This document shows, piece by piece, positions 20,729 through 28,655 of a stretch of DNA of 64,000 bases; the first letter of the stretch is position 1, and each line of letters starts with the position of its first letter. The notes beneath the pieces were generated by a model. That model had not been told where the DNA came from. It did no database searches and worked only from the letters and a program-made list of their open reading frames with translations. The position numbers were made by a program, and so were the translations under genes. The DNA is from Thermoleophilaceae bacterium (GTDB lineage Bacteria; Actinomycetota; Thermoleophilia; Solirubrobacterales; Thermoleophilaceae). Location: positions 782-64,781 of the forward strand of contig JBBJNU010000001.1 of the NCBI GenBank assembly GCA_037721005.1, written 5' to 3'.

Positions 20729-22030
20729 TCATCCGAGCAGAGCGGCGAGATCCCCGGCGAAGTCGGGGTAGGAGATCGCTGCCGCCTCCATGCCGGACAC
20801 CTCCACCCCATCGGTGGACGCCAGGCCCGCTATGGCGCCGAGCATGGCCATGCGGTGGTCACCGCGGGCGTCCATTGCGCCGCCGGGGAGGGGACCGCCG
20901 TCGCCGCGCACCACGAACCCATCCGGGGTGCCCTCGACATCGGCCCCGAGCGCCCCGAGAGTCTCCACGATCGCCTCGATGCGGTCGGACTCCTTATGGC
21001 GCAGCTCCCCAGCGCCGCGCACCACGGTCTCGCCGTCGGCGAACGCGCCGAGCAGGCCCACGAGCGTGAGCTCGTCGATGGCCAGCGGCACCTCATCCGG
21101 CGAGACCTCGGTGCCCTCGAGCGGAGCCCAGGCCACGTCGAGCTCCCCGACCGGCTCGTCGTCGGCCAGCGTTCCCGGCTCCTCGAGGTCACCCAGGATC
21201 ACCCCGCCCATCCGCTGGGCGATGCGTAGGAAGCCGGTGCGCGTCCAGTTCAGGCCGACGTTCTCGATCACCACCCGCGAGCCGGGCACGAGGCAGGCTG
21301 CGGCCACCATGAACGCCGCGGAGGAAGGGTCGCCTGGCACGGTGATCTCGTCCAGCTCGAGCTCGTCGACCTCCCCCACGGTCATCTTCAACCCGTCGCG
21401 CTTGAAGGGAACACGCGCGCGGCGCAGCATTCGCTCGGTGTGGTCGCGGCTGTGGCTCGCCTCGGTGATCGTAGTCTTCCCCGCCGCCAGCAGGCCGGCG
21501 ATCAGCACGCACGACTTCACCTGGGCGCTGGCCACCGGCAGCTGATAGTCGATGCCGTGGAGGTTCGTGCCGCGCACCTTGAGCGGGGGCAGCCGGTCCT
21601 CCCTCGCCTCCACGCCGGCGCCCATCATCTTCAGCGGCTCCACGACCCGATCGACAGGCCGTCGCCGGATCGACTCGTCCCCGTCGAGCACCCATTCGCC
21701 CCCGGGCTGGCCCGCGAGCCATCCCGGCAGGAGGCGCAGAAGCGTTCCCGAGTTGCCCACGTCGAGTCTGCCGCCCGTGGCCTCGAGGGCTGCGTGCAGT
21801 CCCACGCCGCGGATCACCAGCGCCCCCGGCACGCTCTCCTCCTCGATGCCGGCCCCCAGGCGCAGGAGCGCCTCGAGGGTGGACTGCGTGTCGGCCGAGT
21901 TGAGGTAGTTGCGGACCGCCACGGGCTCGTCGCACATGGCTCCGAAGAGGGCGGCGCGGTGCGAGATCGACTTGTCGGCGGGGGGCCGGAAGCGCCCGCG
22001 GAGCGGTCCGGACGGCTCGAAGCGGCTCAC
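20729..22030 (-). CDS. aroA: 3-phosphoshikimate 1-carboxyvinyltransferase (EPSP synthase)
   Basis: 433 aa; PADKSISHRA, LDVGNSGTLLRLL and HKESDRI motifs. Confidence 0.92.
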   Translation of the reverse strand: MSRFEPSGPLRGRFRPPADKSISHRAALFGAMCDEPVAVRNYLNSADTQSTLEALLRLGAGIEEESVPGALVIRGVGLHAALEATGGRLDVGNSGTLLRLLPGWLAGQPGGEWVLDGDESIRRRPVDRVVEPLKMMGAGVEAREDRLPPLKVRGTNLHGIDYQLPVASAQVKSCVLIAGLLAAGKTTITEASHSRDHTERMLRRARVPFKRDGLKMTVGEVDELELDEITVPGDPSSAAFMVAAACLVPGSRVVIENVGLNWTRTGFLRIAQRMGGVILGDLEEPGTLADDEPVGELDVAWAPLEGTEVSPDEVPLAIDELTLVGLLGAFADGETVVRGAGELRHKESDRIEAIVETLGALGADVEGTPDGFVVRGDGGPLPGGAMDARGDHRMAMLGAIAGLASTDGVEVSGMEAAAISYPDFAGDLAALLG

Positions 22031-23085
22031 GCCTGCGCTACAGGGAAGCCGAGGGCTTCGATGAGCTCACCGGCGCGCGCGGAGTCGGCCTCTCCGGCCA
22101 CGACCAGGGTCATGGCCCCGGAACGCATGTCCGACGCGGGCGCCAGGCCGAGATCGACGATGTTCACCCCTGCTTTGCCGAGGGCGAGAGCCACCTGGGC
22201 GACGATACCGGGACGGTTGGGCACCGTGAGGCGTAGCTCGTGAAGTTGCCCGCCGGCGTGATCGGCGTCGTGCAGCCGGCGCCGATCGATTGCCGCGCTC
22301 TCGTTCCACTCGGTGAGAGCAGCGGGGTCGCCGGCGCGCAGGGTCTTGGCAGCCGCCTGTAGACGGTCCACGGCGCCGTCGATCTCGGCGGCGATCGCGT
22401 CGCGGTTGGCAATGTAGATGTCGGTCCAAATCGCCGAGTTGGCTCCGGCCACGCGGGTGGCGTCGCGGAAGCTGGGGCCCACCCGGGGCAGGTCGCCGCG
22501 TCCGGCGGCCTGGGACACCAGCACGTTGGCGAGCACGTGGGGAAGGTGGCTGACGGCGGCCAGCAGGCGGTCGTGCGATTCGGGGTCGATGGCCATTGGC
22601 CTCGCGCCGAGAGCGGTCAGGAAGCGATGCAGGCGCTCGAGCACGATGCCCGAGGACGTGGCTGACGGCGTCAGGTACCAGACGGCGCCCTCGAAGAGAT
22701 CGGCTCGCGCGTGCTCCACCCCCGCGGTCTCCGCCCCGGCCACGGGGTGGCCGCCCACGAAGCGCTCGTCGGCCACGCCCTCTACGAGCTCACCCTTCAC
22801 CGAGCCCACGTCGGTCACGCCGCAGCCGGGCGGAGCGGCGGCCAGGGCGCCGGCCACCTGTTCGGGCAGGGCGCCGACGGGGCCGCAGCAGAAGCACAGC
22901 TCCGCCTCCGCGAGGGCCTCATCGAGCGAGCCGGCCGCACGGTCGATTGCGCCGAGCTCGACCGCTCGTGCCAAGCGCTCGGGCGAGCGTCCGAAACCGA
23001 CCACCTCGACCTCCTCGGCCCGCTCACGGGCGGCCAGCCCGATCGAGCCGCCGATGAGGCCCACGCCCAGGATTGCGATGTTCAC
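22027..23085 (-). CDS. tyrA: prephenate dehydrogenase with C-terminal ACT domain
   Basis: N-terminal Rossmann motif ILGVGLIGGSIG, GGHPVAG catalytic motif and an ACT-like tail. The GTG start overlaps the vapC stop (GTGA). Confidence 0.85.
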   Translation of the reverse strand: MNIAILGVGLIGGSIGLAARERAEEVEVVGFGRSPERLARAVELGAIDRAAGSLDEALAEAELCFCCGPVGALPEQVAGALAAAPPGCGVTDVGSVKGELVEGVADERFVGGHPVAGAETAGVEHARADLFEGAVWYLTPSATSSGIVLERLHRFLTALGARPMAIDPESHDRLLAAVSHLPHVLANVLVSQAAGRGDLPRVGPSFRDATRVAGANSAIWTDIYIANRDAIAAEIDGAVDRLQAAAKTLRAGDPAALTEWNESAAIDRRRLHDADHAGGQLHELRLTVPNRPGIVAQVALALGKAGVNIVDLGLAPASDMRSGAMTLVVAGEADSARAGELIEALGFPVAQA

Positions 23086-23468
23086 GAGCGTGCCTGTCCG
23101 GCGATGCGCCTCAGCCGTTCGTCAAAGGTCAGCAGTTCAGCCTGGCGTTCGATTGCGGTTGCCAGCACAAGTGCGTCCCCAAGCCTCAACCCACGATGAT
23201 CGGCACGCAACCTTGCCGCCCGTCTCGCCAGCGTTGCGTCGATTGCGACGATCTCAGTGCCGGAGTCCTCCACGAAGCCCTCCACGGCCGCCTCTTGCCC
23301 TTTGCGGAGGGGCCCAACGAGTGTTTCCAGATAAGCGCTCGCCGCCAAGAGGAAGTCATCACGACGCCGGGCTCTCTCCGTGAGTTCACTCCAAGCTCGA
23401 TGATGATGTGCGTCGTTGGGCTCGAGGAGGCCGATGACCACGCTCGCGTCGAGCGCTACCGATCCCAC
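23082..23468 (-). CDS. vapC: PIN-domain ribonuclease toxin (VapC family)
   Basis: 128 aa with N-terminal LDASVVI acidic motif and a later ...D..LVLATAI... pattern. Overlaps the upstream antitoxin ORF by 13 nt. Confidence 0.75.
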   Translation of the reverse strand: MGSVALDASVVIGLLEPNDAHHHRAWSELTERARRRDDFLLAASAYLETLVGPLRKGQEAAVEGFVEDSGTEIVAIDATLARRAARLRADHRGLRLGDALVLATAIERQAELLTFDERLRRIAGQARS

Positions 23469-23677
23469 TCGTCGCGCAGATCGTCGAGGTACCCGGGCGG
23501 ATAGGTGCCAGGCGGCAGGCTGCCGGCGTAGCGCTGGATGACGTCGACGACGCTCTCCAGCTCGACACGTCCGCGACCGACCGCTCGGACGCGCAGCTCA
23601 TCCCCGGCATCGAGCCCCGCTTCGCGCATGACCTCGACCGGAATCGTAATCTGGTTCTTGCTCGATACCTTGGCCAT
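23456..23677 (-). CDS. vapB: AbrB/MazE/SpoVT-type antitoxin (VapB-like)
   Basis: MAKVSSKNQITIPVEVMREAGL is a classic SpoVT/AbrB swapped-hairpin N-terminus; 73 aa. Confidence 0.75.
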   Translation of the reverse strand: MAKVSSKNQITIPVEVMREAGLDAGDELRVRAVGRGRVELESVVDVIQRYAGSLPPGTYPPGYLDDLRDEWDR

Positions 23678-23678
23678 G

Positions 23679-23705
23679 CTTTACTAAGTTAGCATTCGAG
23701 TAAAG
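23679..23705 (-). promoter_or_regulatory. AT-rich inverted repeat CTTTACT-N13-AGTAAAG directly upstream of vapB (candidate TA operator/promoter)
   Basis: Read directly. It sits in a 34-bp, roughly 35 % GC gap between the DAHP synthase stop and the vapB start, and contains the inner palindrome CTAAGTTAG. Confidence 0.4.
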
Positions 23706-23711
23706 GCGCAT

Positions 23712-24782
23712 CTAGACCGTACGCCTCTTCCGCACCGCCGCCGCCAACCCGTCGAGCACCGCCTCGGTGGTCTCCCAGTCCATGCACGCGTCAGTGATCG
23801 ACTGCCCGTAGGTGAGAGGCCCGCTCCCGAGGTCCTGGCGCCCTGCCACGAGGAAGGACTCGAGCATCAGACCTACGATCGCCCGGTTACCCCCCGCCAC
23901 CTGGGAGCCGACGTCCGCGGCGACGGCGGGCTGGCGCCCCTCGTCCTTGCCGCTGTTGTCGTGCGAGGCGTCGATCACCACCCTCTCGGGGAGCCCGGCG
24001 GCTCGCAGCCTCTCCAGGGCGTGAGCCACCGCCGCAGGCGAGTAGTTGGGCTCGCCGCGGCCTCCGCGCAGGATCACGTGGCAGTCGAGGTTGCCCCGGG
24101 TGTGGTGGATCGCCGGCGCACCGCTTCGGGCGATACCGGCGAAGGCGTGGCTTGCGGCGGCCGCGCGCACGGCGTCCACCGCCACCTGGACGTCCCCGTC
24201 GGTGCGGTTCTTGAAGCCCACGGGCATGGACAGGCCCGACCCGAGCTGGCGGTGGATCTGGCTCTCGGTGGTGCGCGCGCCGATGGCCCCCCAGGCCACG
24301 GTGTCCGAGATGTACTGAGGGGTGATCGGGTCGAGGAACTCACACCCCACCGGCAGCCGGAGGGCGAGCACCTCGAGCAGCAGCTCGCGCGCCATGCGCA
24401 GGCCCGTGTTCACGTCACCCGAGTCGTCGAGGTGGGGATCGTTGATCATCCCCTTCCATCCCGTGGTGGTGCGGGGCTTCTCGAAGTACACCCGCATCGC
24501 CACGCGCAGGTCCGACTCCAGGGCCTTCGAGCGCTCGGCCAGCCTGCCCGCGTACTCGCGCGCGGCCTCTCTGTCGTGCACGCTGCAGGGCCCCACCACC
24601 GCCAGGAGGCGGTCGTCGGTGCCCTGGAGGATGGCGGCCACCTCCTCCCGGCCGCGTGTTACGACCTGCTCCTGCTCGGCACTGAGGGCCAGCTCATTCA
24701 GAAGGCTCTCCGGGCTGGTGAGCGCCTCTACGCGCTCGATTCGCCGGTCGCTGACCCCGTCTGGCGCCTGAGGACTCGTCAT
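23712..24782 (-). CDS. aroG: 3-deoxy-7-phosphoheptulonate (DAHP) synthase, class I-alpha (AroG/F/H type)
   Basis: 356 aa; ...LLAVVGPCSVHD..., KPRTTTGWKG and IDASHDNS motifs. Confidence 0.88.
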   Translation of the reverse strand: MTSPQAPDGVSDRRIERVEALTSPESLLNELALSAEQEQVVTRGREEVAAILQGTDDRLLAVVGPCSVHDREAAREYAGRLAERSKALESDLRVAMRVYFEKPRTTTGWKGMINDPHLDDSGDVNTGLRMARELLLEVLALRLPVGCEFLDPITPQYISDTVAWGAIGARTTESQIHRQLGSGLSMPVGFKNRTDGDVQVAVDAVRAAAASHAFAGIARSGAPAIHHTRGNLDCHVILRGGRGEPNYSPAAVAHALERLRAAGLPERVVIDASHDNSGKDEGRQPAVAADVGSQVAGGNRAIVGLMLESFLVAGRQDLGSGPLTYGQSITDACMDWETTEAVLDGLAAAVRKRRTV

Positions 24783-24788
24783 GGGTGC

Positions 24789-25817
24789 TCAGGCCGGTAC
24801 GGCGACGCGCTTGCCGGCTATCTCCGCCACCTGCTCGACCTGGCGCAGGTACGCGGCGAACTCGTCGGCGCGCAGGGCTTGGGACCCGTCGCAGATGGCG
24901 GACTCGGGCTCTGGATGAACCTCGACAATGATGCCGTCAGCCCCGGCCGCGGCGGCGGCCATCGACATCGAAGGCACCAGATCCCGCCGGCCCGCGGCGT
25001 GGCTCGGGTCCACCACCACCGGCAGATGGGTGAGCTCCTTGAGAACGGGGATGGCCATCAGGTCGAGGGTGAAGCGGTAGCCGGTCTCGAACGTGCGAAT
25101 CCCGCGTTCGCAGAGGATCACGTCTGAAGTGCCCCCCTTCAGCACGTACTCCGCAGCCATCAGCAGCTCCTCGATGGTCGAGGAGAAGCCCCGCTTGATG
25201 AGCACCGGGCGGCCCGCTTTCCCCACCTCGGTGAGCAGCGTGTAGTTCTGCATGTTGCGGGCGCCGAGCTGGATCACGTCGGCCACCTCGAGCACTGGCT
25301 CGAGGTCGCGCACGTCCATCAGCTCCGTGACCACCGGCAGGCCGGTGAGCTCCTTGGCCTCCGCGAGCAGCGCCAAGCCTTCCTCTCCCAGCCCCTGGAA
25401 GGAGTACGGAGACGTACGCGGCTTGTAGGCCCCCCCACGCAGCATCTGAGCGCCCGCCTCCTTGACGGCGCGGGCTGTGTCGAGCAGGGAGTCACGCGAC
25501 TCGACCGTGCAGGGCCCGGCGATGGTGGCGAAGTGCTCACCCCCGATCTTGGCGCCGGCGATGTCGAGCGTGGTGGGCGCCCCGTGGGTGACCTGCAGGG
25601 AAGCCAGCTTGTAGGGACGCGATATGGGGACCATGTGGTCCACTCCGGGCACGCCCTCGAGCTCCAGGTCAGCCACCTGCTCCTGATCCCCGATGGCGCC
25701 GATCACAGACTGCAGCTCGCCCTCGATCACGTGTGCTCGCGCGCCCGAAGCCTCGACCCGCGCTACCACCGAACGCACCTCTTCGGGAGTCGCCTCCTCT
25801 TTCATCACGATCATCAT
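24789..25817 (-). CDS. DAHP synthase, class I-beta with N-terminal ferredoxin-like/ACT regulatory domain
   Basis: MMIVMKEEATPEEV...VIGAIGD regulatory domain, then the KDO8PS-like core (GPCTVES, RGGAYKPRTSPYSFQG, DPSHAAG). ATG 25817 is preceded by AAGGAAAG. The track start at 25832 is TTG. Confidence 0.85.
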   Translation of the reverse strand: MMIVMKEEATPEEVRSVVARVEASGARAHVIEGELQSVIGAIGDQEQVADLELEGVPGVDHMVPISRPYKLASLQVTHGAPTTLDIAGAKIGGEHFATIAGPCTVESRDSLLDTARAVKEAGAQMLRGGAYKPRTSPYSFQGLGEEGLALLAEAKELTGLPVVTELMDVRDLEPVLEVADVIQLGARNMQNYTLLTEVGKAGRPVLIKRGFSSTIEELLMAAEYVLKGGTSDVILCERGIRTFETGYRFTLDLMAIPVLKELTHLPVVVDPSHAAGRRDLVPSMSMAAAAAGADGIIVEVHPEPESAICDGSQALRADEFAAYLRQVEQVAEIAGKRVAVPA

Positions 25818-25980
25818 GTCTTTCCTTTTCAAGCCTCTCAGGTATATGTACGTATCCGGCGGGGTGGTGGGCCTGTTGCAGAGGCCCGGGCTAGCGGCGT
25901 CCGGGGCGGAGGTCCGAGGCTCTCGGCGTCGTGCCGAAACCTCTCGAGCTCAGACGCGGCAGGAGGCCGCGGCCGGACGC

Positions 25981-26073
25981 CTAGCTAAATCGCCAATACC
26001 ACGAGGCACGCCGACGGAGGCCGCGCGGGGCGGCTTCGCTGGGGGTCGGCGTGGTGAGGCGATGCATCGGCAT
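25981..26073 (-). CDS. candidate attenuation leader peptide MPMHRLTTPTPSEAAPRGLRRRASWYWRFS
   Basis: 30-codon ORF found by hand translation of the operon leader. TGG TAT TGG CGA TTT lies directly before the stop. It is below the size cut-off of the ORF track and has no strong SD. Confidence 0.4.
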   Translation of the reverse strand: MPMHRLTTPTPSEAAPRGLRRRASWYWRFS

Positions 26074-26096
26074 CACTTCTAGCAGAAGGGAGGCAG

Positions 26097-26939
26097 GTGC
26101 ACAACGGGCTTGCGCGGTTAGAGTCCGACCGCGTGATCGAGCTGCAGTCGCACTCCACCGTCTCCGACGGCGAACTCGAGCCCGCAGGGGTGGTGGAGGC
26201 CGCTGCGGCGGCCGGGGTCACCACCCTCTCGCTCTCCGACCATGACGCCATCGACGGCCTCGAGGCGGCCTCCGAGGCGGCCAAGGCCGCGGGGATCGAA
26301 CTGGTGCCCGCGGTCGAGATGTCCTGCGGGCATCCCGTCGCCGAGGAGCTGCACATGCTCGGCTACTGGATCGACCTCGACACTATCGCCGCCGCCTGCA
26401 AACGGGCCCAGGCCGAGCGCGTGGCCCGGGCCGAGGAGATCATCGCCAACCTCAACCAGGCGGGCGTGGAGGTCACCCTCGAGGGGGCGATCGAGCAGGC
26501 CGGCGACGCTGCCTCGGTCGGGCGCCCGCACATCGCCAAGGCGGCGGGGGTCACCGACATGGGCCCCTTCTTCGAGAAGTACCTGATCCCCGGCACGCCC
26601 ACCTTCGTGCCGCGGCGCTGGCCCTCCACGCCGGAGGCCGTGGATCTGATCCACGGCGCGGGGGGCGCGGCGGTGCTCGCCCATCCCTTCTGGGATCTCG
26701 ATGAGCCGCAGACCGTGGCCGACCTGATCGACGAGCTCGACCTCGACGGCGTGGAGGTCTTCTATCCCTCCCACACCCACGAGCAGACCGAGTTCCTCGT
26801 GGGCCTGTGCCGCGACCGAGGGCTCGCCCTCACCGCCTCGTCGGACTTCCACGGACCCGACCACAAGATGTTCTCCCGCTTCGGCGCCTACGACACCTAC
26901 GGCCTGGCCCAGCCGGAGGTGCCGGCCCGGCCGAGCTGA
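26097..26939 (+). CDS. PHP-domain metal-dependent phosphoesterase (TrpH/YciV, COG0613 type); start 26097 or GTG 26133
   Basis: IELQSHSTVSDG N-terminal His motif; later HP..., DG.EV.. and SSDFHGP motifs of the PHP fold. Confidence 0.75.
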   Translation: MHNGLARLESDRVIELQSHSTVSDGELEPAGVVEAAAAAGVTTLSLSDHDAIDGLEAASEAAKAAGIELVPAVEMSCGHPVAEELHMLGYWIDLDTIAAACKRAQAERVARAEEIIANLNQAGVEVTLEGAIEQAGDAASVGRPHIAKAAGVTDMGPFFEKYLIPGTPTFVPRRWPSTPEAVDLIHGAGGAAVLAHPFWDLDEPQTVADLIDELDLDGVEVFYPSHTHEQTEFLVGLCRDRGLALTASSDFHGPDHKMFSRFGAYDTYGLAQPEVPARPS

Positions 26940-26942
26940 GCC

Positions 26943-28655
26943 GTGCTCGCCCAGACCCCCTACGGCGGTGAGCTCGTCGATCTCGTGGTGGGCCACGAGA
27001 GAGCGGCCGAGCTGCACGAGGAGTCGCGTGATTGGCAGTCGTGGAGCCTCACTCCCAAGCAGCTCGCCGATCTCGAGCTGCTGCTCTGCGGCGCGTTCTC
27101 GCCGCTGCGGGGCTTCATGGCACAAGCCGACTACGAGTCGGTGCGCGACTCCATGCGCCTCGCCGACGGAACCCTGTGGCCCATCCCGATCACGCTCGGC
27201 CTGCCGGAGGAGATGGCGCAGGCGCTGAGCTCCGGCGACCGGGTGGCGCTACGCGATCCCGAGGGCGTGATGCTCGCGGCCATCTGCGTGCAGGACGTGT
27301 GGGCGCCCGACCGCGACCTTGAGGCCGAGCGGGTCTGGGGCACGACCGACCCCCGTCATCCCGGGGTGCGCCAGCTGATGGAGGGCATTGGCCGGCACTT
27401 CCTCGCGGGCGACCTCGAGGGCCTCGCCAAGCCCACGCACCACGATTTCATGGGGCTGAGGCTCAGCCCCGCGGAGGTGCGCGCCGAGATCGAGCGGCGC
27501 GGCTGGGAGCGGGTGGTGGCTCTCAGCACGCGCAACGCGATGCACCGCGCGCACCAGGAGCTCACGCTGCGCGTGGCCGAGGAGCTCGGGGCCGGGGTGC
27601 TCCTGCACCCGGTGGTCGGCCCGCTGCGCACGGGCGACGTGGACCACTTCACCCGCATCCGAACCCTCCAGGCCCTACTCGCGCGCTACCCCACGGACGC
27701 CGCGATGCTCGCACTGCTTGGGCTGGCGATGAGGGCGGCCGGCCCCCGCGAGGCCCTTTTTCACGCGATCATCCGCCGCAACTTCGGGGCCACCCACCTC
27801 TTCGTGAGCGAGAACTACGCCGGGCCCGGAGAGGACGCCGGTGGGCCGTTCCACGGACCGGACGAGGCCAAGGACGCTCTGCGTGAGCACGAAGAGGAGG
27901 TCGGCGTGACGATGGTGCCCTTCGAGACGCTCGTCTGGGCCCCGGACCGCGGCGCCTTCGTAAGCGAGGACGAGCTCGAGGACTCCGAGACCGTGCTCTC
28001 GATCTCCGACTCCGGCCTGCAGGAGCATCTCGAGTTCGGCCGCGAGCTACCCGAGTGGTTCACGCCGCCCGAGGTGGCCCGCGAGCTCCGTCGCGCCCGA
28101 CCGCCGCGGTCGCGCCAGGGGTTCACGGTGTTCATGACCGGCCTGTCGGGCTCGGGCAAGTCCACGGTGGCCAACGCACTCATGGCCCGGCTCCTCGAGC
28201 TGGGCGACCGCAACGCCACGCTGCTGGACGGCGATGTGGTTCGCCACCACCTCTCGTCAGAGCTCGGGTTCTCGCGCGAGCACCGCGAGATCAACGTGCG
28301 CCGGATCGGATGGGTGGCCTCGGAGATCACGAAGAACGGCGGCGTGGCCGTCTGTGCCCCCATCGCCCCCTACCGCGCGGTGCGCGACGACGTGCGGCGG
28401 ATGATCGAGCCGGCGGGCGGCTACATGCTGGTGCACGTATCCACGCCCCTTGACGTCTGCGAGGGCCGCGACCGCAAGGGCCTCTACGCCAAGGCCCGCG
28501 CCGGCAAGCTCAAGCAGTTCACCGGCATCTCGGACCCCTATGAGGAACCTACCGACGCCGAGGTCACGATCGACACCACGCGGACGAACGCCGCGGACGG
28601 CGCGCAGGCGATTCTCGACCACCTGGTCGCCGAGGGCTACCTGAAGGCCTCCTAG
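26943..28655 (+). CDS. sat: bifunctional sulfate adenylyltransferase / adenylylsulfate kinase
   Basis: The N-terminal ATP sulfurylase part has QxRNxxHRAH-like NAMHRAHQEL. The C-terminal APS kinase has the P-loop GLSGSGKSTVA. Confidence 0.88.
   Translation: MLAQTPYGGELVDLVVGHERAAELHEESRDWQSWSLTPKQLADLELLLCGAFSPLRGFMAQADYESVRDSMRLADGTLWPIPITLGLPEEMAQALSSGDRVALRDPEGVMLAAICVQDVWAPDRDLEAERVWGTTDPRHPGVRQLMEGIGRHFLAGDLEGLAKPTHHDFMGLRLSPAEVRAEIERRGWERVVALSTRNAMHRAHQELTLRVAEELGAGVLLHPVVGPLRTGDVDHFTRIRTLQALLARYPTDAAMLALLGLAMRAAGPREALFHAIIRRNFGATHLFVSENYAGPGEDAGGPFHGPDEAKDALREHEEEVGVTMVPFETLVWAPDRGAFVSEDELEDSETVLSISDSGLQEHLEFGRELPEWFTPPEVARELRRARPPRSRQGFTVFMTGLSGSGKSTVANALMARLLELGDRNATLLDGDVVRHHLSSELGFSREHREINVRRIGWVASEITKNGGVAVCAPIAPYRAVRDDVRRMIEPAGGYMLVHVSTPLDVCEGRDRKGLYAKARAGKLKQFTGISDPYEEPTDAEVTIDTTRTNAADGAQAILDHLVAEGYLKAS

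Follow-up and report, generated by a model that had tools for sequence, protein, structure and literature searches.

A leader peptide, aroR, has been described upstream of aroF in Corynebacterium glutamicum (Neshat et al. 2014, as cited in PMC11802643 and PMC4046766), and the initial annotation of the present locus had correctly referred to such a peptide. AroR is a peptide with the residues Phe-Tyr-Phe and no Trp, which responds to Phe and for which transcription attenuation is reported. Two other actinobacterial systems act on 5' leaders. In the LEU element upstream of leuA, Leu codons of the leader pair with the Shine-Dalgarno (SD) sequence of leuA (Seliverstov et al. 2005; PMC1262725), and in Mycobacterium tuberculosis translated upstream ORFs are associated with Rho-dependent conditional termination (bioRxiv 10.1101/2022.06.01.494293; PMC12810186). 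The leader described here, which is found in Thermoleophilia, resembles aroR as described in being actinobacterial, in having, immediately before a DAHP synthase (DAHPS) gene, a short ORF in which aromatic codons are clustered and in a proposed mechanism of ribosome stalling. It differs from aroR, which was compared by description, in the combination of W, Y and F codons, an invariant end of 18 nt, a helix adjoining the stop codon and the absence of a canonical terminator, and in serving two classes of DAHPS together with tyrA-aroA. With the LEU element it shares a proposed pairing of codons with the SD sequence as the base stem of a compact structure and the lack of a terminator (PMC1262725); amino acid, sequence and inner structure, which is a pseudoknot in LEU, are different, and unlike in LEU the base stem emerges from statistics across relatives and is not evident in the window. 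Like the M. tuberculosis upstream ORFs, it is a high-GC actinobacterial 5' leader with a small, here putatively translated, ORF, no intrinsic terminator and a spacer richer in C than in G, and it may likewise serve as a translational platform with Rho as the likely executor; the M. tuberculosis cases are, however, not sensors of aromatic codons.

The likeness to trpL and pheL lies in regulatory codons near the end of the ORF and in a local hairpin including a Trp codon (1:2-like), which competes with a helix beginning at the stop codon (2:3-like). In contrast to trpL and pheL, no Rfam family matched, and neither a U-tract terminator nor a conserved 3:4 helix was found; the mRNA is predicted to be leaderless, and the 2:3-like helix encloses a structured domain of 60-90 nt. 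TnaC and SpeFL are conserved as peptides and not as nucleotides, and they let a free amino acid induce catabolic genes. The Thermoleophilia leader is similar to these in its conserved C-terminal residues beside a specific stop codon, upstream of a possible Rho-loading region, but its synonymous sites are fixed and its operon is biosynthetic. By this comparison, the predicted sensing step is like that of C. glutamicum aroR or E. coli trpL/pheL, whereas the terminator that defines a classical attenuator was absent. Newly described are the invariant nucleotide block, the placement of a helix directly at the stop codon, the use of a single sensor for all three aromatic amino acids and the service of two DAHPS classes.

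The window, that is, the whole stretch of 64,000 nucleotides that was analysed, was taken from a Thermoleophilaceae bacterium, and the leader and its operon lie on the minus strand. According to Pfam and NCBIfam, the putatively regulated operon (20729..25817) comprises a DAHPS of class I-beta (B. subtilis type with ferredoxin-like N-domain; 25817..24789, ATG at 25817), a DAHPS of class I-alpha (aroFGH type; 24782..23712), a PIN/vapC gene with a putative antitoxin (23610..23082, the family matches being those of PIN), tyrA-ACT (23085..22027) and aroA (22030..20729). The gene content given by the initial annotation was therefore right for both DAHPS genes, PIN, tyrA and aroA; the 74-aa ORF before the PIN gene, which it had called vapB, matched no family in Pfam or NCBIfam.

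Upstream of this operon, a reading frame absent from the ORF list had been noted from ATG 26073..26071 to TAG 25983..25981. It is present in the sequence and encodes MPMHRLTTPTPSEAAPRGLRRRASWYWRFS, with the codons TGG TAT TGG CGA TTT (W Y W R F) at 25987..26001 as its aromatic cluster. In the six frames of the window, three stretches of five codons had at least four aromatic residues, while mononucleotide shuffles averaged 1.4, and only the leader cluster united W, Y and F in this DNA of 70% GC. Taken by itself, the window was thus only suggestive of a non-chance cluster, and conservation in relatives was decisive.

A search with the I-beta DAHPS protein of the window yielded 80 species-level genomes (identity ≤78%), all of them Thermoleophilia (Solirubrobacterales or Thermoleophilaceae MAGs). 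Neither this DAHPS nor the leader peptide had an exact counterpart among 15 billion proteins. The 80 genomes had been picked via the DAHPS protein alone, with no use of the leader, and in 59 of them a short ORF, located 80-280 nt before DAHPS, ended in W-R-F-[S/I/T]-stop. The tails of these ORFs were variable and aromatic-rich, and their N-termini could not be aligned. The other 21 genomes formed one clade with DAHPS proteins at most 61% identical, in which the DAHPS gene abutted another gene or had a close promoter of its own. Codon statistics were obtained from 120 non-redundant leaders from genomes and metagenomes. Between codons -12 and -5, 34.5% of the codons specified W, Y or F in frame, compared with 1.1% and 4.7% in the other two frames and 3.8% in adjacent CDS. 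A short ORF rich in codons for the end products, as is general for attenuators, was kept in 59/80 genomes. All three of W, Y and F were present in 116 of the 120 leaders. The leaders also favoured codons that are rare in the neighbouring CDS, with TAT:TAC at 101:113 (CDS, 13:637) and TTT:TTC at 19:77 (CDS, 8:525). The in-frame aromatic enrichment and the rare Tyr and Phe codons together are the signature of what would be a translated regulatory leader peptide. The alignment of orthologous leaders that had been suggested as a check thus recovered a conserved short ORF with clustered W/Y/F codons, and the earlier view that the cluster is not accidental was upheld by its retention in 59/80 genomes and at least 120 metagenome contigs.

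When the sequences upstream of the leader ATGs were aligned, a -35 element TTGnnn, a spacer of 17 nt and an extended -10 element TGnTACAAn became visible, and in 72 non-redundant relatives an in-frame ATG came next, at a distance of 7-17 nt from the -10 element. The window has the -35-like hexamer TTGTGC at 26099..26104, in the place of the TTGnnn found 17 nt upstream of the -10 element in most orthologs, and the extended -10 sequence TGCTAGAAG at 26076..26084 (TG at 26084..26083 and TAGAAG at 26081..26076), which lacks the canonical final T. A simple sigma-70 scan of the window did not detect this promoter, which was visible only by comparison with the relatives. A promoter and start codon that place the ORF at the 5' end of the transcript, as in an attenuator, are accordingly indicated by comparative evidence, and the objection that no clear SD or -10 element precedes the ATG no longer stands.

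The initial annotation had let the ORF start at ATG 26073. This codon is only 2 nt past the -10 element, and the second ATG at 26067, which is 8 nt past it, is the likelier start. The -10/ATG layout of the latter matches that of three orthologous loci (L001, L002 and L004), one of which (L001) has an identical MxMHR start and an identical 8-nt spacing. The probable form of the leader ORF (25981..26067) therefore has 28 codons, MHRLTTPTPSEAAPRGLRRRASWYWRFS, followed by TAG, on a predicted leaderless or near-leaderless mRNA, and ATG 26073 is probably outside the transcript. Leader peptides without a ribosome-binding site are known in C. glutamicum as well. It had also been held against the leader that only 23-59 nt were available before the divergent PHP gene. 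The NCBIfam profiles match the PHP protein from residue 13-14, so that this gene probably starts at GTG 26133 and not at 26097; this leaves about 65 nt, and the leader promoter fits into the intergenic space.

Comparison of the 59 genomes revealed a nucleotide-invariant block, TGGCGATTTAGCTAGGCG, at 25978..25995, comprising the ORF end, the stop codon and the first bases of the long-range helix P1 described below. The ORF ends read TGG (55), CGA (59), TTT (59), AnC, TAG (59) and GCG (59), the numbers being those of genomes with the respective triplet. In the peptide, W at position -4 was conserved to 97% and R at -3 and F at -2 to 100%, while residue -1 varied (S, I, T, R or L). In adjacent genes, only 6% of Arg residues are encoded by CGA and 1.5% of Phe residues by TTT, and TAG accounts for 16% of stop codons. 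Since CGA, TTT and TAG are fixed in spite of their rarity and residue -1 is variable, selection appears to act on the nucleotides and not on the peptide only. Conservation of the peptide with synonymous variation, as in leaders of the TnaC/SpeFL type, was not found, CGA, TTT and TAG being present in 59/59 genomes. The initial annotation had missed this invariance as well as the promoter and the likelihood of a later start codon. The block occurs once in the window, with no second copy there at up to three mismatches. Readings of the block as a -10 element, an antisense promoter, a palindromic operator, a TRAP-like site or an ops-like pause element (GGCGGTAGnnTG) were unconvincing on inspection. 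A model of ribosome stalling and SD pairing, as set out below, leaves the strict invariance of CGA-UUU-AnC-UAG unexplained, including the third codon positions in a hairpin loop.

Folding of the leader indicated two helices at the ORF end. The local hairpin H0 (25979..25999) has the consensus CGCCUGGC-GAUUUA-GCUAGGCG with 8 bp; the consensus folded at -15.7 kcal/mol (z -3.75) and the window version at -6.7 kcal/mol (z about 0), H0 being weak in the window because codon -5 is TAT and not GCC. The second helix, P1, encloses a domain at 25896..25981, in which the 5' arm GGCGUCCGG (25981..25973) pairs with the 3' arm CCGGACGCC (25904..25896). The exact complementarity of GGCGTCCGG (25981..25973) to the latter segment had been pointed out from the sequence, and both strands do pair in the minimum free energy (MFE) fold. 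P1 begins at the G of the stop codon, has the consensus GGCGYYCGG / CCGRRCGCC and was found in every relative. In the window it is extended by UUAGC/GCUAG (25988..25984 / 25895..25891) and encloses lineage-specific hairpins at 25971..25955 and 25951..25909; the whole domain folded at -53 kcal/mol (z -3.0). In a pseudo-alignment of P1, 97.3% of the cells were paired, compensatory changes from C-G to U-A occurred at two positions and none of 500 shuffles reached the score; the 3' arms had been chosen by duplex search, so that this covariation count leans towards structure. RNAalifold recovered P1 independently. The 3' strand of the consensus H0 and the 5' arm of P1 have GGCG in common, so that the 1:2-like and 2:3-like helices overlap there.

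Downstream of P1, the hairpin GGGCCU-N7-AGGCCC that had been proposed for the window was recovered in the MFE fold as Hc (25869..25887; 25887..25882 / 25874..25869) at -11 kcal/mol and without a U-tract. It is lineage-specific, and a comparable hairpin was present in only about half of the relatives, rarely with U after it. A terminator scan found no canonical terminator-like site in the window, and among 116 leaders only 49% had a best hairpin after P1 of at least -10 kcal/mol stability, while in 100 of the 116 the 9 nt behind the best hairpin contained at most two U. An intrinsic terminator before the first structural gene, as in a classical attenuator, was thus not found, in agreement with the earlier remark that a U-tract terminator is missing, which applies to the window scan and to conservation in the 116 leaders. 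A region 4, that is, a complement of the P1 3' arm or a second copy of GGCGYYCGG, was absent downstream in the subgroup of the window. Rfam 15 at gathering score gave no family in the window or in seven orthologous loci (Trp_leader, Phe_leader and T-box included), and a scan of 24500-27500 at E≤10, again including T-box, gave noise only. Folding for mutually exclusive helices, which the initial annotation had recommended, therefore yielded the overlap of H0 and the covarying P1 in the consensus, but no conserved 3:4 partner and no U-tract terminator. Of its proposal of ribosome-mediated attenuation, a putatively translated W/Y/F leader ORF was retained on the strength of conservation, its own promoter and the covariation of P1, and the classical terminator mechanism was not.

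The SD sequence of DAHPS I-beta in the window is AAGGAAAG at 25820..25827 (family consensus GAAAGGA about 7 nt before the ATG) and is predicted to be open (0.89). In the MFE fold, the aromatic codon tract pairs with a downstream segment at 25833..25861 through the helices CGCCG (25861..25857), AUACC (25845..25841) and GAGGC (25837..25833). This segment is upstream of the SD, and it is the only partner of the codon tract in the window; a base stem of codon tract and SD was not seen there. Across the family, duplexes between leader codons -17 to -5 and the cognate SD region were more stable than those with non-cognate SD regions (n=120, p<2e-4; n=65, p=0.003), with a signal that faded under stricter de-redundancy (n=42, p=0.017; n=31, p=0.053). 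The effect was small, about 1 kcal/mol, and control regions were not significant. Matching pairs of codon tract and SD occurred in several lineages, namely GCUUCUCCUA/UAGGAGAAGC, GUCCUUCGC/GCGAAAGGAC, UUUCACCUG/CAGGUGAAA, GUCGUCCU/AGGAUGAC and UCCUAUA/UAUAGGA. Pairing of the variable part of the leader with the region -50 to -25 was not cognate-specific (p=0.19-0.36). The SD accessibility calculated from partition functions was equal on average for native and shuffled leaders (0.43 vs 0.43), and its mean did not differ between states with the ribosome stalled and at the stop codon. The cognate-pairing statistics lend moderate support to a base stem between codon tract and SD. An ermC-like anti-SD immediately 5' of the P1 3' arm was dismissed as weak (p=0.02, 0.5 kcal/mol; motif in 38/117).

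The spacer after P1 had C and G contents of 0.37 and 0.26, with C exceeding G in 82% of the leaders. Rut sites are biased towards C over G (PMC13650167), and the spacer would fit Rho loading; that Rho takes part here is pure inference. At -30 to -40 from the DAHPS ATG, 32 of 54 relatives had a hexamer TAnnnT (TAGGAT, TAGAGT, TAACAT, TAAGAT and others); elsewhere in the leaders, over more than 4000 positions, it was seen just twice. It was also present in I-alpha loci and in a locus without a leader, L053; the window and its nearest relatives have an AT-rich box at the same position (25854..25843) but no canonical hexamer. The hexamer had been considered as an RNA partner of the GAUUUA loop. 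C or U frequently occupies its n positions (TAACAT, TACCAT, TACTCT), so that it fits better as a -10 promoter element, and it looks like a second promoter before DAHPS. Transcripts from this putative promoter would bypass the leader, which would then superimpose inducible expression on a basal level.

The reading that best accommodates these data is that of a conserved leader peptide which probably acts as a ribosome-stalling sensor for the DAHPS-tyrA-aroA operon of Thermoleophilia and would thus be a ribosome-mediated attenuator in a wide sense. The dedicated promoter would produce a leaderless or nearly leaderless mRNA, the first 28 codons of which end in a W/Y/F-rich and often rare-codon tract. 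The stop codon is on the first base of the very stable, long-range P1, and in most relatives the last codons would also form H0, a rival for GGCG. Under a shortage of charged tRNA-Trp, -Tyr or -Phe, a ribosome would stall on the aromatic tract and block its pairing with H0 and with the purine-rich 5'UTR/SD region of DAHPS. P1 would be folded during the stall, DAHPS would be translated, the transcript would thereby be protected, probably from Rho, and expression of the operon would rise. With plentiful aromatic amino acids, the ribosome would reach UAG, melt P1 and leave, the codon tract would re-pair with the downstream region and expression would fall. The sequence comparisons show the ORF, its promoter, its codon bias, P1 and the association with DAHPS genes. 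We infer the output step to be of the kind described, and the particular SD/Rho mechanism is put forward tentatively, with much less confidence than the sensor itself.

Transcription attenuation of the classical trp/phe type, with H0 as 1:2, P1 as a 2:3 antiterminator and Hc or a 3:4 helix as a terminator without U-tract, appears unlikely. The overlap of H0 and P1 at GGCG does mimic 1:2 against 2:3, a terminating ribosome must melt P1 as its 5' arm starts at the stop codon, in individual leaders such as L074 and L017 a U-rich run comes after a helix overlapping the P1 3' arm, and transcription attenuation is reported for C. glutamicum aroR (PMC11802643). What weighs against it is that the window has no terminator-like site and that, among the 116 leaders, the best hairpin after P1 often falls short of -10 kcal/mol and mostly has few U behind it; moreover, Hc has no bases in common with P1 and is absent from short leaders, and in the subgroup of the window nothing downstream is complementary to the P1 3' arm. 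The lack of a terminator, together with the C-rich and G-poor region after P1, would also agree with a sensor of the TnaC/SpeFL kind, in which W-R-F-x and UAG stall the ribosome at the stop codon in the presence of a free aromatic amino acid and thereby control Rho access or RNA folding. The fixation of W, R and F and a stop codon that is always UAG, which is RF1-specific and makes up 16% of DAHPS stops, point in the same direction. Selection on the peptide alone would not lead one to expect fixed synonymous positions beside a varying residue -1, however, and a tRNA sensor would be in keeping with the variable aromatic codons farther upstream. An arrest triggered by abundant amino acid would normally switch the gene on; for a biosynthetic operon this sign would be wrong, unless the circuit were inverted. 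This explanation is considered improbable, more so than classical attenuation.

The invariance in 59/59 genomes, which extends to the loop and to third codon positions, is typical of sequence-specific recognition, and the block of 16-18 nt might be the site of a trans-acting factor, either an RNA-binding attenuation protein or a DNA roadblock repressor, to which the ORF would be secondary. The block has no dyad symmetry and no TRAP-like repeats, no regulator gene is conserved nearby, the upstream genes varying among loci, and both the frame-specific aromatic enrichment and the promoter-proximal in-frame ATG would be left unexplained; this is the least probable of the alternatives. Hardly more credible is a separate small transcript (a small mRNA or sRNA ending near Hc), with DAHPS expressed mainly from the TAnnnT promoter and the leader acting in trans or only through occasional read-through; it might, for instance, be an anti-SD RNA with a seed that stalled ribosomes mask. 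The position-specific occurrence of TAnnnT, the resemblance of TAGGAT and TAGAGT to actinobacterial -10 boxes, the retention of TAnnnT in the leaderless L053 and the complementarity of the codon tract to the SD would agree with such a transcript. Against this, the leader is always directly upstream and on the same strand, which fits action in cis, no terminator closes the leader unit, and the window and its closest relatives are without a canonical TAnnnT. A stalling sensor acting in cis therefore remains the preferred reading.

It is also conceivable, if rather doubtful, that the invariant UGG-CGA-UUU-AnC-UAG-GCG and the stable helix at the stop codon constitute a dedicated module for slow termination. 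Rare codons, a stop codon read by RF1 only and a helicase load on the ribosome would then be combined, the last four codons would be a hypersensitive sensor of dwell time, and the output would go directly to the SD region and Rho, without terminator or antiterminator. Such a module would be portable between two DAHPS classes and would represent the fusion of a leader peptide to an RNA element of defined structure. We know of no such hybrid of RNA element and leader peptide described for amino-acid operons.

The operons behind the leader in relatives had the order I-beta>tyrA>aroA, I-beta>I-alpha>tyrA>aroA, which is that of the window, or I-alpha>tyrA>aroA; in the loci compared, the leader DAHPS was always followed by tyrA-aroA. 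The PIN/vapBC insertion was present only in the window among the operons compared. An exact-pattern scan of metagenomes for the invariant block matched at least 120 contigs. Among the 120 matches listed, 70 had an I-beta DAHPS downstream and about 32 an I-alpha DAHPS instead, and the remaining ones were contigs that ended too early and one odd case, L110. With the exception of L110, the block was found only in front of DAHPS genes among the matches listed. Judged by these sequences, one leader type serves DAHP synthases of class I-beta and of class I-alpha, and TGGCGATTTAnCTAGGCG is a clean annotation marker for the DAHPS-tyrA-aroA operon in metagenomes.

To our knowledge, C. glutamicum aroF is the only case in which experiments have demonstrated control of the committed aromatic step by a leader peptide. 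The present leader family would extend leader-peptide logic at DAHPS across a deep, mostly uncultured and soil-abundant class of actinobacteria. It goes beyond the textbook model in its predicted leaderless translation of the sensor, the presence of W, Y and F in one peptide, a strong bias towards rare codons, a nucleotide-invariant ORF end, a structured domain at the stop codon and the absence of an intrinsic terminator. The family may thus offer a compact system for studying how the position of a ribosome is turned into expression in bacteria of high GC content, in which Rho and translational platforms prevail.

The leader was also found in front of a different class of DAHP synthase (DAHPS). 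Among the matches listed for the metagenome loci (L081-L200), at least about 32 contigs carry a class I-alpha (AroG-like) DAHPS gene behind the same invariant leader, for example L091, L100, L135 and L139. The I-alpha proteins encoded behind the leader begin with MMIGM, MIIGM or MFIGM and thus resemble the MMIVM start of the I-beta enzyme, which is itself conserved at the nucleotide level (ATGATGATCGTGATG). This likeness suggests one of two things: a tandem operon lost its I-beta gene by deletion, or the regulatory RNA includes the first codons.

Pairing predictions also involved the DAHPS start. In the window, a duplex is predicted between the 5′-terminal segment of the leader mRNA, AUG included (26068..26060), and the sequence around the DAHPS start codon (25816..25809). 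Across 72 orthologs, this duplex had a stability of -9.8 kcal/mol vs -7.0 kcal/mol with shuffled 5′ ends (p=3e-8). Since CAUG and GAUC, the cores of the pairing, are palindromes, this excess in stability may be trivial. Within P1, the long-range helix starting at the leader stop codon, an inner hairpin with the loop CGUGAGCGGG was strongly conserved in one subgroup, in the leader regions of the orthologous loci L010, L015, L019, L022-L027, L030, L036, L038, L040, L042, L047 and L049. The complementary motif CCC(N)CUCACGG was found downstream of P1 in the same subgroup, and a further alternative helix, restricted to this lineage, could possibly form between the two elements.

The -10 element of the leader promoter (26076..26081 in the window) was TACAAA, TACAAC or TAGAAG in about 50 orthologs. 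It lacks the final T, which is usually near-invariant, and is always preceded by TGn and by TTG at a spacing of 17 nt; judged from these motifs, the form is unusual for a sigma-70-type site. The start region of the divergent PHP-family gene (26097..26135, plus strand) contains two candidate start codons, GTG 26097 and GTG 26133. GTG 26133 is most likely the start rather than the first GTG, and GTG 26097 overlaps the -35 element of the leader promoter. In NCBIfam, the gene matched 3′,5′-nucleoside bisphosphate phosphatase and RNase RNM best, although neither match reached the cut-off. Between leader and DAHPS, 32 of 54 relatives possess a position-specific TAnnnT box (TAGGAT, TAGAGT, TAACAT and others) 30-40 nt upstream of the DAHPS ATG (e.g. 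L005, 2960-2975; also L010 and L091), a motif almost absent elsewhere in their leaders. The box probably marks a second promoter. Locus L053 has no leader, yet possesses the box, and the window shows only an AT-rich patch at the equivalent position (25843..25854).

The window operon contains a PIN-domain (VapC-like) gene and an upstream 74-aa ORF without a family match between DAHPS I-alpha and tyrA (23082..23610, minus strand). A PIN gene was absent from this position in all of the roughly 130 related operons, so the toxin-antitoxin-like pair is a recent insertion into the aromatic operon.

In a leaderless clade (L071-L076, L079), the DAHPS start overlaps the stop codon of the upstream gene (TGATGATCGTGATG). 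The upstream product ends in ...HELAHHLG.DELGV.ELGL* and looks like a metallopeptidase, and DAHPS belongs to a different operon in this clade. L045 possesses a decayed leader copy (TGGCGATTTCCCC...) about 135 nt upstream of DAHPS, in which the ORF continues beyond WRF. The metagenome locus L110 has the exact invariant block, but an in-frame stop just upstream of it limits the open frame to ...PHWRFT*. The next gene, 11 nt downstream, encodes a membrane protein. In L045 and L110, the element may have been lost or put to another use.
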